A stretch of 32,944 nucleotides of DNA, taken from the IMG/VR virus record IMGVR_UViG_2648501787_000007; one strand, 5' to 3'. This document shows positions 12,638 to 32,577 of this stretch, piece by piece. A program made the position numbers and the translations under genes. The notes under the pieces were generated by a model. That model worked only from the letters and a program-made list of their open reading frames with translations. It made no database searches and was not told the DNA's origin. The first letter of the stretch is position 1. Every line of letters begins with the position of its first letter. Source of the stretch: a virus (taxonomy: Duplodnaviria; Heunggongvirae; Uroviricota; Caudoviricetes).

Positions 12638-16318
<3,681 letters not shown>

Positions 16319-23507: not shown

Positions 23508-24063
23508 GCTTCACCTCCACAGAGGTCAGACGCTGGATGCAAAAAAACGCAGGTGCATTTCTGCATCTGTGAATGGAGAAGAGAGTTTGGATTGTATGTG
23601 CGCATAAACGTCCCCGTTTAGCGCAGAAGTCACCGGAGTTGTTCAGGCTCCGATGACATTATTATGGCATTTTGATTATTGGATCTCAATTTTGTATTGT
23701 TAAATTAGATGATTAGTTTCACAAATTAATAATTTCAGTCTAACATCATGTTAGCAAACAGTAAAAATGATGAATGTTGTAACAAAGGGTGTTAAAACAT
23801 TTAACAAACGTTCATCTCAACCATAAAAACTCAAAAAGAAAACAACCCCAATATAATAAACAGCCCATCAAAATAGCAGTTCATAATTTAATCTTGACCA
23901 TAAGCTTATTCTAAATAGCATGCCCCCTACAAGAAAATGCAGGGAGCTTGCATTGTGATATTATTATTTCATTAACATCAAATACGTTAAATATAACTCA
24001 CGAGTTCAACAACATCTCAATATTGGGAAAAATCACCAAATTAAAAAATAACCCCATAAAGAA

Positions 24064-24087
24064 CTCCAAATCATTAAAAATTTGGAG
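24064..24087 (-). terminator. Intrinsic terminator-like hairpin just after the HAD gene stop
   Basis: 8-bp stem CTCCAAAT/ATTTGGAG with 8-nt loop, followed on the minus strand by TTCTTTAT. Confidence 0.35.
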
Positions 24088-24098
24088 CCTGCACATGC

Positions 24099-24935
24099 TC
24101 ATTTCAAATTCAGCAGCTCTGAAAAACTATTAACAACATAATCAGGTCTAACATTGGAGAATGCTTTTCTAAGTTGTTCCTCCCTCTCCACATCTGCATC
24201 TTTCCAGTGTGTGATTTTCACTAAAACTTTCCACAATTCAGGTGAAAACTGTCGCCCATAATTAGCCCAAACAGCAGTAACCCCCACAGCTTTAGCCATG
24301 GACATATCTTTAGTTATAGAATCGCCAATGTATACCGCATCTTCAACACTAACTCCTTCAAAAGAACATATGTGCTCAAGCAATTTAGGGTTTGGCTTTG
24401 ACTCAGCGCAGGACAATCTAATTACAAAGTCATCCTTCACAGGTATTTTTTTTGCATTTTTGGGATTCGGGTGGATATTATGAATATCTTCTAATGTATA
24501 AAGATGATCAAAAAAATCAATTATACCAAGCTTATTCAGACGATATAAAGAATTAAACTCCAAAGCTTCAGTATGCCCTACAATTTTTACCCCCCGTTTC
24601 TTCAATAATTCCAGCGTTTCTTTTACAGTAGGATACAACATTAATGTCTGGTTACGTTTTGTGCTAAACGCCTGAAAAACATTAGTAAGTTTTTCCTGCA
24701 AAATCGTTTTATCATTAGTTCCAAAGTAAGATATCACAGATGGTAGCTCTAAAGTAGCAAATGGTTTTTCTGAGTTACCAAACTTCTGATGAATTGTTTT
24801 ATATTCTGACAGGAGCGTATCCAAAGGCACATCAATATCCTTAGATAATTGCTCTGCCATGGCACTAAATGACTGGGAGTAAAAACTCACCCAATCGTAC
24901 AGTGTATTATCCAAATCAGTAATAAGTAATTTCAT
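24099..24935 (-). CDS. HAD-superfamily phosphatase/hydrolase
   Basis: 278-aa ORF with HAD motif I DLDNTL (DxDxT) at residues 7-12 and motif IV-like GDSITKD near the C-terminus; AT-rich; start overlaps the upstream gene stop (ATGA). Confidence 0.8.
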   Translation of the reverse strand: MKLLITDLDNTLYDWVSFYSQSFSAMAEQLSKDIDVPLDTLLSEYKTIHQKFGNSEKPFATLELPSVISYFGTNDKTILQEKLTNVFQAFSTKRNQTLMLYPTVKETLELLKKRGVKIVGHTEALEFNSLYRLNKLGIIDFFDHLYTLEDIHNIHPNPKNAKKIPVKDDFVIRLSCAESKPNPKLLEHICSFEGVSVEDAVYIGDSITKDMSMAKAVGVTAVWANYGRQFSPELWKVLVKITHWKDADVEREEQLRKAFSNVRPDYVVNSFSELLNLK

Positions 24936-26578
24936 AATAAACCTTCAACAATATAAGTAGCCGCCACTTTTTCTCCGCTCTGTTTATCAAGCTTGAAAAA
25001 ATTAAAAGTTAGCTTTTCGCCAGAAAAATCCAGTACGCATGCATAGTTAGCACAATCCTGACTTGGCAATTCCGAACTAACAACTCCTGAACTTCCCAAA
25101 GAAACAATTTGGAATGTATGTTCAGGATTTGAATCCGTCACTGGTTCTAACGGAGATAGTTTTTTTGTTATTGTAATAAAACTACTTCTGTGCATATGAC
25201 CATGCAGAATATAATCAACTTTATGCCTTACTACCCAACGTAATAATCGCTCTGCATCTAATGTTACACTATATCTTGAATCAAGATAGGCATCTTCAAC
25301 TTCATTAATAGAAGTTAGGTGATGGTGAAGCATAGCAATTCTTATAACACCTTTCTTTTTGAGTATATCTCCTCCGCTATCATTCATCCATCCCATAGAT
25401 TTTGCAACATCACTGAGTTGTTGCTCACCGACAAATCCCATGCCCAAAAATGAATCTTTTACTTGTTGTAATACGCATGAGTTCAATGCGGCTATTTCAA
25501 CAACTTTATGGCCACCTAGTAAAAATTTCCTTCCTTGTGATAAATTTTCTTCAGGTTCCCTTTGAAAAAAATCTCGATAAAATTTTATATAATTAAGTTT
25601 ACTTTCGCTATGGTAGTTTTCCGCCAGAATTTTCCATGGTTTATCCGTTACAGGCTTACCAACGATTTTAAAGTACTCATCTTTAGAAACCAGACCTACA
25701 TCGTGATTCCCAGGACAAATAATTATATCATCCGTTGTCAGACTAAGAGAAGAACTAACATCTTTGATAAAATTCAAAGCTTGCTCGAATCCCTCTTTCT
25801 GTGACTGCCACGTCAAATCACCTGAAATAGCCAACCCAGCACATTTACTCCCATTATTATATTTTCCAGCCAACTCCACCACTCGAGAGGATAAACATTT
25901 TAGCTGATCATTATCTTGTGTCGGAAATGCATGTTTCCCATTTCCGCCATCAAAATGAATATCCGAAAGCCAAATTATAAACTCCCCTTTTTTTTGGCTA
26001 TACTTCCGACTGAAATTATAAGGAACATAATGAGATGCTAATGACTCATGCTGTAAATCTTTATCATTTGCAGGTCTAATCTTCCAAATAGTTCTATCTT
26101 GTTTTTTTAATTCAGCTGAAGAAAAGACAATTTTGTTGAAAAGTTGCTCATCTAAATCTTTATTACCTGCAAACAATGCATCCAATGGAATATATGTGAA
26201 TTTTTTGAGGATATCACAAGCATCAATTTCTATAATCTCAGAAACATTTAACCATCCCAGCAACTCATTCTCATTATAATATGCTGGGGTTCTGCGACCA
26301 TCCTTAGGAGATTGCTTTTTTATATCCCCTAAAGCTGACGAGCAGGTATCCTTTAATACAGCGGTATAAAATTTAAGCCGCCCTGAATCAAAAAAATATA
26401 TTTGTTTATTTTTTTCTGCCGCATTTTTTAGTTCCAGTGATGGGAAACGCTCACCAGATTTAGCCCACCACCCCCACCAAACATTCCCTTCTTGGCGAGC
26501 AATGTTATTGTGTTGCTCGATGGTAAATCCTTCACTTTTTCCTAGGTCACGGAACCTAAAAATATAGGTTTCACACAT
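24932..26578 (-). CDS. Calcineurin-like metallophosphoesterase with ~190-aa N-terminal domain of unknown function
   Basis: 548-aa ORF with ordered metallophosphoesterase motifs SDIHFDGG, SGDLTW, GNHD, MLHHH, HGHMH; N-terminal region contains VWWGWW and no recognised motif; AT-rich. Confidence 0.8.
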   Translation of the reverse strand: MCETYIFRFRDLGKSEGFTIEQHNNIARQEGNVWWGWWAKSGERFPSLELKNAAEKNKQIYFFDSGRLKFYTAVLKDTCSSALGDIKKQSPKDGRRTPAYYNENELLGWLNVSEIIEIDACDILKKFTYIPLDALFAGNKDLDEQLFNKIVFSSAELKKQDRTIWKIRPANDKDLQHESLASHYVPYNFSRKYSQKKGEFIIWLSDIHFDGGNGKHAFPTQDNDQLKCLSSRVVELAGKYNNGSKCAGLAISGDLTWQSQKEGFEQALNFIKDVSSSLSLTTDDIIICPGNHDVGLVSKDEYFKIVGKPVTDKPWKILAENYHSESKLNYIKFYRDFFQREPEENLSQGRKFLLGGHKVVEIAALNSCVLQQVKDSFLGMGFVGEQQLSDVAKSMGWMNDSGGDILKKKGVIRIAMLHHHLTSINEVEDAYLDSRYSVTLDAERLLRWVVRHKVDYILHGHMHRSSFITITKKLSPLEPVTDSNPEHTFQIVSLGSSGVVSSELPSQDCANYACVLDFSGEKLTFNFFKLDKQSGEKVAATYIVEGLL

Positions 26579-29222: not shown

Positions 29223-29228
29223 TATCAA

Positions 29229-29296
29229 TTCCTATTGGTATTGCAATGAATGAATAATAGCAATGAGTATTAATCCAAGCAATAGCAAAACGTGTT
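29229..29296. promoter_or_regulatory. Right operator region (OR-like) with three related sites ATTGCAAT / ATAGCAAT / ATAGCAAA between cro-like and cI-like genes
   Basis: Repeats at about 29240, 29257 and 29282; the same CAATAGCAAT core recurs at the OL-like region near 31678 and 31703. Confidence 0.5.
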
Positions 29297-29323
29297 TTGA
29301 CCATCAATACGCAAGCGTATAAA
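29296..29323 (+). promoter_or_regulatory. Promoter for the cI-like gene (-35 TTTGAC/TTGACC, -10 TATAAA), giving a near-leaderless transcript
   Basis: TTTGACCATCAATACGCAAGCGTATAAAT ends about 10 nt before the ATG at 29333, with no Shine-Dalgarno. Confidence 0.45.
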
Positions 29324-29332
29324 TTAAAACTT

Positions 29333-30025
29333 ATGAAAAAAGAAACTCTTGCTGATCGCTTAAACCTAGCGATGGAACAATCTGGAATGTCTCAAGGCGC
29401 TCTTGCAAAGGCGTCTGGCGTAGCTCAACCCACAATCTGGAGACTGACAAGCGGCAACGCGCGCGGCTCAACAAAAATTGTTGAAATAGCTAATGCATTG
29501 GGTGTTCGAACAGAATGGCTCTCATCAGGCATAGGCCCGATGAGAAATGACGGTCAACAATCAGGGAAGCCTGCTGTCAGCCATTCCAAATACTTCAAAA
29601 TTGACGTTCTTGATATAGAAGTCAGTGCCGGGCCGGGAGTCATCAACCGTGAGTTTGTAGAAGTTCTACGCTCGGTTGAGTACTCGTTTGACGATGCTCG
29701 TCACATGTTCGATGGCAGGAAGGCAGAAAATATCCGCATCATTAACGTGCGTGGTGACAGCATGTCAGGAACGATCGAACCAGGTGATCTGCTGTTCGTT
29801 GATATCACGGTTAAATCTTTCGACGGTGATGGTATCTATGCATTTCTGTACGACGACACCGCCCATGTAAAGCGCCTGCAAATGATGAAGGATAAACTGC
29901 TGGTTATCTCTGATAACAAGAGCTACTCACCGTGGGATCCTATCGAGAAAGACGAGATGAACCGGGTGTTTATCTTCGGGAAAGTTATTGGGAGCATGCC
30001 GCAGACCTACAGGAAGCATGGGTAG
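29333..30025 (+). CDS. CI-type prophage repressor (N-terminal HTH plus C-terminal S24 LexA-like autopeptidase)
   Basis: MKKETLADRLNLAMEQSGMSQGALAKASGVAQPTIWRL... HTH, then GDSM (catalytic Ser) and a conserved Lys in HVKRLQ; the ORF track starts at an upstream TTG 29297. Confidence 0.85.
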   Translation: MKKETLADRLNLAMEQSGMSQGALAKASGVAQPTIWRLTSGNARGSTKIVEIANALGVRTEWLSSGIGPMRNDGQQSGKPAVSHSKYFKIDVLDIEVSAGPGVINREFVEVLRSVEYSFDDARHMFDGRKAENIRIINVRGDSMSGTIEPGDLLFVDITVKSFDGDGIYAFLYDDTAHVKRLQMMKDKLLVISDNKSYSPWDPIEKDEMNRVFIFGKVIGSMPQTYRKHG

Positions 30026-30364: not shown

Positions 30365-30991
30365 ATGATCGTTCAATCCACATCGCTTCGAGCAAGGGAG
30401 CTTGAGGCGCATTTGAATTGGCTAATTAATACATTCACAGATGAAAAAGAATCTGTGTTAATGCTTCAAGATAAGCCATCCGAAGAAACGATGAAAAAAA
30501 TGGAGAAAGCACCAGCCAAGAGCATAAAAATTGGTGGATTACCCATTACTTCAGAAGTTAAAAATTCAGAGAACCAAACACCCTCCTTTTCAAATGGTTC
30601 GGTGAAGACAATAAAATACCGCCCAATAGGGAAAGGAGGTGCGCTACTAAAAGCATTTTTTGGCGATAACTGGGCAAATGATATAAACATTAAAGATTCA
30701 TTAGATGAGGCCAATTTACAAGTAAGCCTCGAGATTACATACTTCAGAAAAACAAATGATAGCGGTCAAGCTGTTATAGACAGTATTGCTACCTCACTAC
30801 GACATCTAGATGAGGATGATATTAGCATCAAACTTCAAGGCGGTGGGGAAATAACGGGAAAAGAGATAAAATTATCCGGAAAAATTAGCGTTGAACATAA
30901 CAATGGCATTATTGATGAAAATGATTTATTCTTAAAAATGCATAAGTGGCTGTTCTCAAAACTTGATGCCGGAGAATTGGTTGCAAAATAA
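30365..30991 (+). CDS. Hypothetical cytoplasmic protein in the rexA position; frame is open upstream to 30152 and may be a frameshifted ~280-aa gene starting at ATG 30148
   Basis: 208-aa ORF MIVQSTSLRARELEAHLNWLINTFTDEKESVLMLQDK...; AT-rich; no Shine-Dalgarno before 30365; 71 stop-free in-frame codons upstream. Confidence 0.5.
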   Translation: MIVQSTSLRARELEAHLNWLINTFTDEKESVLMLQDKPSEETMKKMEKAPAKSIKIGGLPITSEVKNSENQTPSFSNGSVKTIKYRPIGKGGALLKAFFGDNWANDINIKDSLDEANLQVSLEITYFRKTNDSGQAVIDSIATSLRHLDEDDISIKLQGGGEITGKEIKLSGKISVEHNNGIIDENDLFLKMHKWLFSKLDAGELVAK

Positions 30992-31012: not shown

Positions 31013-31519
31013 ATGAAATCGAACATCATCCACCTTATTGGTATGTTGGTCTTCTATGTTGCTGGTTACTTTTTGTTCAAGTCAGCATTGGGCTATATTA
31101 CACCGGGTGTTGTCCTAACAGCTCCGTGGGCTGTGGTTGGACTCATGCAATTGCCATTATCATATTGTATACAAGCCATTTTTAAGGCAAATGAGGCCAA
31201 TGACCACTCGTCTTTAACCCCTAGTGAGGTTAGGCGATTAGTGCCAATAGTCAAATCCAAGAGACTGAAATTGGTTTTATTATTAGCTTTCTATGTATTT
31301 TCAACTTTGTTTGTAATCTTGGGGTTAATAGCAAGCACAAATGATCAAGCCCTACTCTTCAGGGTCTTAAAAATTTCAGGTGGATTACTCTTTATTTCTC
31401 TCTATACCAGTGTATTCGTTCATAAAATAATGGTTGAGCTTCAAGAGTTTAAAGCGTTATTAAACCGAAGAGAATCAGAGAAGAAGGAAAGAGAGTCACT
31501 CCTTGATAGATTAAAATGA
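31013..31519 (+). CDS. Hypothetical 4-TM membrane protein in the rexB position
   Basis: 168-aa ORF with four hydrophobic segments and a charged C-terminal tail (RRESEKKERESLLDRLK); strong AGGAGG Shine-Dalgarno; 21 nt after the preceding ORF. Confidence 0.65.
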   Translation: MKSNIIHLIGMLVFYVAGYFLFKSALGYITPGVVLTAPWAVVGLMQLPLSYCIQAIFKANEANDHSSLTPSEVRRLVPIVKSKRLKLVLLLAFYVFSTLFVILGLIASTNDQALLFRVLKISGGLLFISLYTSVFVHKIMVELQEFKALLNRRESEKKERESLLDRLK

Positions 31520-31527
31520 CCCCCCTC

Positions 31528-31554
31528 CCCGGCCGTCGTGCCGGGTTTTCTTTT
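31528..31554 (+). terminator. Intrinsic terminator ending the cI/rex-like operon (CCCGGC-CGTCGT-GCCGGG followed by TTTTCTTTT)
   Basis: GC-rich hairpin plus T-tract 9 nt after the stop of the membrane-protein gene. Confidence 0.7.
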
Positions 31555-31639
31555 GCCTCCCCTCATCACACACCGTTCAAAAAACCACCATGCCCCTGCT
31601 TCAGTTATCGCTATGCGATGCAAGTCACAAAATTAATTC

Positions 31640-31721
31640 TTTTTGCTATCAAACATTTAATATCAAAACACATCAGTCAATAGCAATAAGTATTGATATC
31701 ACCAATAGCAATAGCTATTAT
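31640..31721 (+). promoter_or_regulatory. OL/pL-like region: -35 TTGATA (31693-31698), 17-bp spacer, -10 TATTAT (31716-31721), with CAATAGCAAT operator repeats at about 31678 and 31703 and an inverted TTGCTAT at about 31643
   Basis: Read directly; the operator core is the same as in the OR-like region. Confidence 0.5.
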
Positions 31722-31797
31722 CATCATATCGCAACAACACAACGATACGGCAACCACCTGATTCACCGTTGCGATGACCGCTTAGATCCGTAGCTTG

Positions 31798-31868
31798 AAT
31801 TTCAGCAGGCTCCGGGAAGTGCGAGGGGTGAAGCGGACGCGTGAACGTCGGTGTGACCAGCTGAAATT
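31798..31868 (+). promoter_or_regulatory. Structured RNA element downstream of the pL-like promoter (9-bp closing stem AATTTCAGC/GCTGAAATT enclosing a GC-rich 53-nt core); possible antitermination or terminator element
   Basis: Inverted repeat read directly; internal GACG-CGTGAA-CGTC hairpin; about 75 nt downstream of the -10. Confidence 0.3.
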
Positions 31869-31914
31869 AACTCAACATTTCATACCTCAGTCGCTTCAAC
31901 GAGGCGGCTTAGTT

Positions 31915-32205
31915 ATGACAACCGGCGGCCATCCACCGCCTGAATACGCGCAGAAGTCTTTATATGTTCAGCAGCCCAGCTTACGGGCAGGAGTTTTTAT
32001 GGTTCATCAACATTACGGAACGCAGACCGTTAATCGCGGTGCGGTCATGCCAGGAATGCTGGTCAAACACAAAGATGGTACCTGGACAGCATCAGCTAAT
32101 TTACGCGGACGGCTATATCTGCATCGCGGCATCGAGCGCACTTATACCCGTGATTTGCTCGTGGAAGTTTTTCTCGACGGACGAGGCAACGGCCTGAATC
32201 ACTAA
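31915..32205 (+). CDS. Hypothetical early protein immediately upstream of gam (possible Kil-like host-killing protein)
   Basis: ATG at 31915 preceded by GAGG; MTTGGHPPPEYAQKSLYVQQ...TWTASANLRGRLYLH...; the ORF track starts at TTG 31795 with an Arg-rich extension that crosses the hairpin element; the Kil resemblance is from uncertain recall. Confidence 0.3.
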   Translation: MTTGGHPPPEYAQKSLYVQQPSLRAGVFMVHQHYGTQTVNRGAVMPGMLVKHKDGTWTASANLRGRLYLHRGIERTYTRDLLVEVFLDGRGNGLNH

Positions 32206-32280
32206 TCCCCTTTCCTGTTTTCCTAATCAGCCTGGCATTTCGCGGGCGATATTTTCACAGCCATTTTCAGGAGTTCAGCC

Positions 32281-32577
32281 ATGAACGCTTATTACATTCA
32301 GGATCGTCTTGAGGCTCAGAGCTGGGCGCGTCACTACCAGCAGATTGCCCGTGAAGAGAAAGAGGCAGAACTGGCAGACGACATGGAAAAAGGTCTTCCA
32401 CAGCACCTGTTTGAATCACTCTGCATCGATCATTTGCAACGCCACGGGGCCAGCAAAAAAGCCATTACCCGTGCATTTGATGACGATGTTGAGTTTCAGG
32501 AGCGCATGGCAGAACACATCCGGTACATGGTTGAAACCATTGCTCACCATCAGGTTGATATTGATTCAGAGGTATAA
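32281..32577 (+). CDS. gam: Gam (GamS form), RecBCD inhibitor
   Basis: 98-aa [63 protein letters not shown]..., near-identical to lambda GamS. Confidence 0.92.

Follow-up and report, generated by a model that had tools for sequence, protein, structure and literature searches.

The stretch of DNA analysed here, referred to below as the window, comprises the 32,944 nt of the tailed-phage record IMGVR_UViG_2648501787_000007 (Caudoviricetes) in IMG/VR. Its right end corresponds to a lambdoid immunity and early region in which pL reads rightward, and the present analysis deals with the interval between this promoter and gam. Very probably, this interval is the start of the early-left operon of a lambdoid phage that lacks N and holds Rac-type (YdaS/YdaT) immunity, in which kil is the first gene and the 271 nt between pL and kil form an untranslated leader in which a conserved core RNA specific to the lineage (31762-31868) is followed by a hairpin block of pan-lambdoid distribution (31880-31960). 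The leader consists of two constrained modules with a neutral spacer between them. The features of the interval, all of them on the plus strand, are the following:

31678-31721: oL/pL, with a -35 box TTGATA at 31693, 17-nt spacing and a -10 box TATTAT at 31716, overlapped by half-sites CAATAGCAAT
31728-31761: variable 5' part of the pL transcript, replaced in two other immunity types
31762-31868: lineage-specific conserved core of 107 nt, a 36-nt 5' segment followed by a 71-nt predicted three-way junction
31869-31888: neutral spacer and recombination joint, with a TTT remnant of the T-tract of the relatives' tL1A-type terminator
31880-31918: H2, a pan-lambdoid hairpin, with 9 inner bp at 31889-31909 and an outer helix formed by UCAUACCU with UAGUUAUGA
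31924-31940: H3, the hairpin GGCGG-CCAUCCA-CCGCC, with the conserved motif GCGCAGAAGTCTT at 31948-31960
31999-32205: kil, coding for a KilR-like FtsZ/cell-division inhibitor of 68 aa, with the Shine-Dalgarno (SD) sequence AGGAG at 31989-31993, 5 nt before the ATG
32281-32577: gam, coding for a RecBCD inhibitor (phrog_259, E 1.2e-60) and annotated as such in relatives
from 32584: bet, directly after gam

The promoter scan identifies a sigma-70 promoter at 31693-31721 with 10 of 12 consensus matches, downstream of a hairpin and T-run terminator (31528-31545). The half-site CAATAGCAAT has 7 of its 8 matches in the window in two clusters, one at 31678-31718 and the other in the cro-cI gap (29228-29289), and as the promoter lies inside the first of these clusters, it is a repressor-controlled pL. 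A preliminary description of this DNA had placed a pL-like promoter about 560 bp ahead of gam, and the distance from the -10 box to the gam start (32281) is indeed 559 nt. Transcription is predicted to start around 31728, since homology across immunity types begins there, while in two further operator types the homology of the leader begins at 31762. The 5' part may fold into a small terminal hairpin, AUCG-CAACAACACAA-CGAU, or form an 8-bp pairing of 31728-31735 with 31768-31775 (inverted repeat I2). A +1 hairpin with an A/C-rich loop is a group-wide feature: it occupies 31728-31746 in the window and appears as AUCGA-AACGAAACA-UCGA in phi80 (locus L005, ~2276-2294) and HK639 (locus L004, ~1776-1794), being present whether a phage of this group uses N, put or neither.

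The only open reading frame (ORF) between pL and gam, listed in the preliminary description as a small unknown gene of 96 aa, is kil, and its product has 68 aa. It matches the Kil family phrog_294 (E 1.3e-37 over residues 1-68) and the NCBIfam KilR/FtsZ-inhibitor model NF008465 (E 1.8e-17, profile positions 1-70 of 73), and position 1 of the latter falls on Met-31999 in scans of both the 68-aa and the 136-aa form. As the NF008465 score (63 bits) is under the curated subfamily cut-off (92 bits), the product is a relative and not an equivalog. The protein is of the same family as KilR of the Rac prophage, and the immunity here is also Rac-like (YdaS/YdaT); it differs from it in the score mentioned above and in that kil is here the first gene after pL. 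The same 207-nt gene is present in the RefSeq annotation of phage 4A7, and its PGAP name is 'phage encoded cell division inhibitor protein'.

The 96-aa form, which starts at ATG 31915 (not 31916), and the 136-aa form, which starts at TTG 31795, are both in-frame extensions of kil. Diversity by codon position is periodic in kil (0.017/0.019/0.072) and flat in the frame upstream (0.022/0.020/0.030), and a survey of indels in 64-98 distinct homologous sequences revealed that the extension frames are broken, with 1 nt lost at 31920, 2 nt lost at 31952-3 and 5 nt gained after 31866. On this comparative evidence both longer forms are read-through artefacts, as had been suspected of the Arg-rich N-terminal extension, and the Arg-rich stretch is G-rich RNA as it looks when translated. 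Since the database records of kil vary in length (68, 93, 96, 125 or 139 aa), the present analysis corrects an inconsistent annotation. A leader peptide MTTGGHPPP was also considered and rejected, because the conserved nucleotides are read in three frames among phages and frameshifts occur.

The immunity region is Rac-like, with YdaS and YdaT. Over 31520-32290 the window shares 91-97% identity with coliphages that have been isolated and that belong to Bievrevirus or are related to it (Perceval, 4A7, Lambda_4C10, the PhiR series, IdasGreatGrand and Turner). Isolated phages such as Perceval, 4A7, the PhiR series, IdasGreatGrand and Turner show this compact order of pL, leader, kil and gam as well. 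It also lies directly downstream of any of four pL/operator types in all 116 IMG/VR loci, and it is present in 2206 of 5426 complete Escherichia coli genomes (~40%). The earlier suggestion that the early-left operon had been deleted does not agree with these data: because the layout is native to plaque-forming phages (Bievrevirus) and is present in ~40% of the genomes, it is not a deletion remnant, and since these phages are viable, an N-less architecture works.

The absence of a recognisable N between pL and gam, already noted in the preliminary description, was confirmed. No N-like gene was found in that interval, elsewhere in the window or in the annotated genomes of the relatives. Searches of all early ORFs with Pfam, PHROGs and NCBIfam gave no N-like protein, a weak negative since PHROGs misses even the N of phi80 (L005, 2686-2982), which falls in phrog_25091, 'unknown function'. 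Profile libraries are accordingly unreliable for detecting N-type antiterminators, and the absence of N rests on position and ORF content. The boxA pattern (YGCUCUUUAACAA, up to 3 mismatches) has 13 matches against 15.3 expected by chance, none of them in the pL leader. As the operon has neither N nor a nut site, whatever happens at pL is N-independent, one of the two options considered in the preliminary description.

The same description had mentioned, by analogy, a cis-acting RNA of the HK022 put type. A covariance model (R1) of put was built from 18 putL sequences of IMG/VR contigs on a published pairing scheme (PMC9378689) and run with filters off, the putR of HK022 being held out. It recovers putL of HK022 (94 bits), HK639 (88), CobraSix (97) and S9-5 (91), as well as the held-out putR (40 bits, E 8e-8). 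In the window, Perceval, 4A7 and a copy from O157:H7 (loci L001, L002 and L133), its best score is 10.8 bits (E 0.76), at 14179 in a structural gene. Inspection by eye likewise revealed no homology to put. The conserved sequence and two-stem structure of put (GAACGGCGCG...AACCAUGCGUCGG; GGCGGG...CGGCAAU) do not occur in the window either. With regard to the remaining traits of put, the core belongs to a phage without N and is promoter-proximal in 116 of 116 loci, and there is no second copy in the pR operon, a trait that is not strictly put-defining because HK639 also lacks a putR annotation. The leader is therefore not of the put type as far as a model able to find the held-out putR can tell. 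Elements of that type are widespread, the putL core pattern being present in at least 120 IMG/VR contigs; in one contig, putL stem I is joined to a boxA-like CGCTCTTTAACAA.

Diversity along the leader was estimated in a set of 7 phages retrieved with the whole region as query, which makes it unbiased, and in a set of 98 contigs ascertained by an exact match to 31819-31841. Nucleotide diversity (pi) and the fraction of polymorphic sites are as follows:

31728-31761, variable 5' part: pi 0.116, polymorphic sites not counted
31762-31868, core: pi 0.024-0.030, polymorphic 5/84 to 7/107
31869-31888, spacer: pi 0.078-0.105, polymorphic 5/20
31889-31998, downstream part: pi 0.007-0.014, polymorphic 2-3/110
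within 31999-32205, kil third positions: pi 0.053-0.073, polymorphic 11-16/68

Core and downstream part together have fewer polymorphic sites than the kil third positions (Fisher p = 0.0018 for the 7 phages; 1.2e-5 for the 98 contigs, where the ascertainment stretch is left out of the counts and a linked-site bias is possible), and the core alone gives p = 0.07 and 0.002, respectively. According to these values and the limit set by ascertainment, the downstream part is strongly constrained and the core moderately so, with core polymorphisms ~2-2.5 times fewer than those at kil synonymous sites. It is because of this conservation, and not of its folding energy, that the leader stands above chance.

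The core begins 34 nt downstream of the predicted +1 of pL, lies ~130 nt from the kil ribosome-binding site, with no pairing between the two, and is always linked to the downstream block and kil. Folded alone, 31796-31870 is predicted to adopt a three-way junction, in which 31798-31806 pairs with 31860-31868 as the closing stem, 31810-31825 forms a weak hairpin and 31827-31858 an irregular one. In the hairpin-rich element described before at 31798-31868, the inverted repeat is real (arms 31798-31809 and 31857-31868, 12 nt, 92% complementary) and a three-way junction fits it; the folding energy of the element is at chance level. The common helix polymorphisms (31804 A/G, 31812 C/U and 31833 G/A) all stay paired in the junction by wobble-compatible changes. 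A long hairpin, the minimum-free-energy fold of 31763-31844, is disfavoured, as 31833 G/A breaks its pairing. These polymorphisms favour the modelled three-way junction over the long hairpin weakly, because there are no double compensatory changes. A 7-nt anti-terminator pairing of 31829-31835 with 31892-31898 was rejected, since G31833A breaks it and C31894 is fixed. In the phage database, blastn finds the core in Escherichia phages only; a profile search (nhmmer) gave no homologue in 15 related loci, and the kil-anchored loci of other genera in which homologues were sought hold only unrelated leaders. Neither this leader, its sequences nor the regulation of Bievrevirus was found in the literature, and the prophage small RNA (sRNA) svsR, Pas and anti-sRNAs were discarded as its identity because they are encoded elsewhere in the prophage.

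In contrast to the core, the downstream block (31878-31960) is common at the nucleotide level to phi80, HK225, HK639, the Enterobacter phages CobraSix and ENT1, the Klebsiella phage KO-TP1 and the P22-like Salmonella phage S9-5. The homology to phi80, HK225 and further phages sets in at TTTCATACC, and the joint of the window lineage falls at the T-tract remnant, inside the neutral spacer. H2 is a 16-bp hairpin with two 1x1 mismatches, whose outer helix is predicted to sequester AUG 31915. Across 8 phages, 96% of its cells are paired and 7 pairs show changes in both partners; these values were not attained in any of 500 shuffles, slid partners pair at 51% or less, and the folding z is -3.0. Judged by this comparison, H2 is a genuine conserved RNA structure, and its G.U pairs show that the structure belongs to the plus-strand RNA. 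The block is not a peptide, as its conserved nucleotides are read in three different frames among phages. Copies lie at L005 3005-3060 (phi80), L004 2985-3052 (HK639) and L006 3001-3063 and in L264, L265, L266 and L267, and the block is not in Rfam. In KO-TP1, phi80 and HK225, a motif GTTCCGCYRGCCGGCGAYAAGGCAA recurs shortly ahead of the ribosome-binding site that comes first after the block.

H3 is annotated as a terminator in HK639, and the "t-L1 regulatory signal" of an old phi80 record starts inside the block. The scan for intrinsic terminators gave no site in 31546-32147: neither H2 nor H3 has a proper U-tract, the closing stem of the core being followed by AACUCAACA and H2 by UAGUUAUG (4 U in 8). 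That the element behaves as a simple terminator, an outcome considered in the preliminary description, is unlikely for lack of a hairpin with a U-tract. The block may serve as a processing site or belong to a Rho-dependent tL1 signal.

The comparison with the seven other phages reveals what usually fills the slot between pL and the block. In all seven, a canonical tL1A-type terminator (hairpin and T6) immediately precedes the block, and the order is pL, nutL or putL element, early gene(s), terminator and block. The slot holds a phi80-type nutL/boxA leader in phi80, HK225, KO-TP1 and ENT1, and putL in HK639, where a single put is annotated, on the pL side only, and in CobraSix and S9-5, where it is detected by the covariance model (L264 2132-2205 and L265 914-987, respectively). 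In the window lineage, terminator, gene(s) and nut/put element are missing and the core alone precedes the block. The core takes the place that the nutL-N-tL1 module has in lambda and phi80, after pL and ahead of the conserved post-tL1 hairpin block and the kil region. That module differs in having an N gene, a boxA and a tL1A hairpin with its T-tract, of which only the TTT remnant is left here. N-less prophages with Rac-type immunity from Citrobacter, Kluyvera, Silvania and Enterobacter carry kil 75-165 nt after pL, behind unrelated leaders, one type of which places a hairpin of 18 bp 10 nt ahead of the kil SD; such kil-first loci (L135-L142) also include Pseudocitrobacter.

Further downstream, the pL operon of the relatives runs kil-gam-bet-exo-orf60a-orf63-orf61, followed by GGAGCTACAGGCTCC-TTTTTT and then by a DksA-like gene, xis and int, and GGAGCTACAGGCTCC-T6 is identical in N-dependent lambda. 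The hairpin and T6 GGAGCTACAGGCTCCTTTTTT between orf61 and the next gene are identical in Perceval (L001, 7183-7197), 4A7 (L002) and lambda (L268, ~30.67 kb).

Lambda N/nut is the textbook model of processive antitermination, and the put RNA of HK022 is the only phage alternative to it that is known; put suppresses downstream terminators and pauses in cis, and mutations in the zinc-binding domain encoded by rpoC block it. On the basis of position, constraint and the lambda-type terminator downstream, we tentatively propose that the core may be a cis-acting RNA promoting N-less read-through, an analogue of put in role and not in ancestry. The proposal is made because the core is the first element transcribed from pL in 116 of 116 loci with four immunity types, because the slot it occupies alone holds nutL/boxA or putL in seven of seven relatives, and because it is constrained and its common polymorphisms keep the pairing of the three-way junction. 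Read-through would be needed since N, boxA and put are absent yet GGAGCTACAGGCTCC-T6 is kept as in lambda, and an element restricted to pL has a precedent in the single pL-side put of HK639. Under this proposal, the core would act in cis on the nascent pL transcript and the elongation complex, without a phage protein, and would let RNA polymerase pass both the block of the tL1 region directly downstream and the lambda-identical hairpin and T6 between orf61 and the xis/int end. It would do the job of nutL plus N in phi80 and of putL in HK639, CobraSix and S9-5, being a member of neither family. The core resembles put of HK022 and HK639 in being promoter-proximal on the pL transcript, of similar size (~70-110 nt) and multi-helix, in a lambdoid phage without N, with the HK639 element also limited to the pL side; it differs from put in that there is no homology of sequence or structure, no put-type -10-like pause element was seen, and no terminator comes directly after the core. 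It is doubtful whether one may go further and see in the 107-nt core a protein-independent antiterminator RNA of a third class, unrelated to put and EAR, which would have replaced nutL-N and would serve pL transcripts only.

Several results weigh against read-through as the role of the core. Its fold (-23.8 kcal/mol, z = -1.55, with 16 of 200 shuffles as stable) is unexceptional for its composition; its variation is too low to show covariation, and its constraint when taken alone is moderate (p = 0.07 in the 7 phages). No match was found to Rfam 15 at gathering thresholds in the whole window, with only chance hits (E >= 1) in 31400-32400; the put model gives nothing at 31700-32000, and BLAST reveals no second copy of the core in the window that could be a putR analogue after pR. 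Nor does the terminator scan find a strong terminator between pL and bet, and as no canonical terminator separates the core from kil-gam-bet, nothing nearby obviously needs suppressing. Since the leaders of other genera are unrelated and only 75-165 nt long, N-less pL operons may need no such device. Finally, protein-independent antiterminator RNAs are rare, put and EAR being the only ones known.

Nearly as likely as read-through, and likewise only possible, is that there is no early-left antitermination and that the leader is an ordinary cis-acting 5' untranslated region (UTR), which sets the output of the toxic Kil and of Gam/Bet/Exo through a stabilising 5'-terminal hairpin, through processing of the long hairpins by RNase III/E, or through partial attenuation that depends on Rho. 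The constant linkage of the core to the block and kil, the lack of a strong terminator from pL to bet, the helix that starts at the predicted +1, the kil-first operons of other genera behind different structured leaders (one with the 18-bp hairpin) and the 16-bp H2 with its two 1x1 mismatches, a shape that by our own inference resembles RNase III substrates, all fit this explanation. It leaves unexplained how pL transcription passes the lambda-type terminator ahead of xis/int, and the distance of ~130 nt between the core and the kil ribosome-binding site, the absence of pairing with that site and the antitermination elements in the same slot of seven of seven relatives are against it. Here the closest known cases are the RNase III-processed hairpin of the lambda N leader and the early RNase III sites of T7, which, like H2 and the predicted closing stem of the core, are long and irregular hairpins situated in the leader of an early operon or between cistrons; in contrast to the lambda hairpin, H2 is downstream of N in phi80 and not upstream. 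It is unlikely, in turn, that the core has little or no function, as a recombination joint or decaying relic that looks conserved through the recent spread of prophages. Its confinement to Escherichia prophages at >=95% identity, the absence of covariation, a stability at chance level and the p of 0.07 against synonymous sites in the 7-phage set would agree with a relic, but in the same sequences polymorphism is 2-4 times higher in the adjacent spacer, at the third positions of kil and between kil and gam, and the same core is kept behind four promoter/operator types. Quite improbable is a trans-acting sRNA or decoy derived from the pL leader (a 5'-UTR-derived sRNA, a sponge or an anti-defence RNA) and ended or processed at H2. 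Such an RNA would be conserved, non-coding and made first after induction, as the core is, and H2 followed by UUAGUUAU could terminate weakly; however, no canonical terminator follows, neither literature nor Rfam holds a record of it, and its complementarity to the operon does not exceed that of shuffled cores (-43.0 kcal/mol at best, where shuffles give -38.4 +/- 2.5 and go down to -45.3). This also separates the core from the leader-derived immunity RNAs CI of P4 and C4 of P1/P7, which are structured RNAs of early-operon leaders too, but pair with repeated target sites in the same operon.

The remaining explanations carry far less weight. A defective prophage with the N-to-cIII segment deleted would account for a pL-gam distance ~2.5 kb shorter than that of lambda, but it is very improbable given that isolated propagating phages and ~40% of complete E. 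coli genomes share the layout and that the homology between immunity types begins at the transcription start and not at a deletion scar. Still harder to credit is a divergent member of the HK022 put family: the core is promoter-proximal and multi-stem, has ~70 nt and belongs to a phage without N, but the model that recovers the held-out putR (40 bits) and putL in four phage lineages finds nothing in the window or in three relatives. Equally remote is an N-like protein fused to Kil in the 136-aa ORF, with the Arg-rich N-terminus RLREVRGVKRTRERR as its arginine-rich motif (ARM). An open frame spans 31795-32205, and its Arg-rich motif is superficially like the ARM of lambda N, but the start is a TTG with no SD, homologues have the frame interrupted by the 5-nt insertion after 31866 and by other indels, diversity shows no codon periodicity, the Kil profile starts at Met-31999 and there is no boxA/boxB.

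If the core does promote read-through, nutL-N would have been replaced in what is possibly the most widespread lambdoid prophage lineage of E. coli, with ~40% of complete genomes; if it has no antitermination activity, a lambdoid early-left operon can run without any antiterminator. In either case, a plaque-forming lambdoid lineage present in about two fifths of complete E. coli genomes does without N/nut and put while keeping the lambda exo-xis module and its terminator, and the candidate RNA of 107 nt, together with the hairpin block that covaries, offers entry points to the question of how delayed-early genes are expressed in it.

The other features of the immunity and early region are as follows:

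29297-30025, plus strand: cI (helix-turn-helix and S24 peptidase)
between cI and the terminator, in the rexAB position: two low-GC ORFs with no assigned function
31528-31555, plus strand: intrinsic terminator ending the cI-side (rexAB-position) unit, hairpin CCCGGCCGTCGTGCCGGG followed by the T-run TTTTCTTTTG
29228-28995, minus strand: cro (YdaS-type)
28970-28425, minus strand: YdaT/"CII-like" gene
22106-21417, minus strand: Q-like antiterminator, leftward with O, P and the nin genes

The pair in the rexAB position (30365-30991 and 31013-31519, plus strand) encodes a 208-aa protein and a 168-aa membrane protein, both in low-GC genes, which match only PHROGs families of unknown function and nothing in Pfam, NCBIfam or PADLOC. 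In relatives, the cargo at this position differs (SIR2, HipA-like or ASCH), and the pair is possibly an unrecognised defence or exclusion system. On the minus strand, between P and ninB, the gene at 24099-24935 matches the PADLOC candidate-defence model Hydrolase PDLC03008 (E 4e-57), and that at 24932-26578 the 'Effector endonuclease' / PDC-S60 models (E 1e-9 to 5e-8). They are followed by a 590-nt gap before ninB (23508-24098, minus strand), with a terminator-like hairpin at 23947-23922 and promoter-like sites at 23703-23661, the contents of which suggest that in this N-less phage a separate promoter may serve the nin-Q segment.

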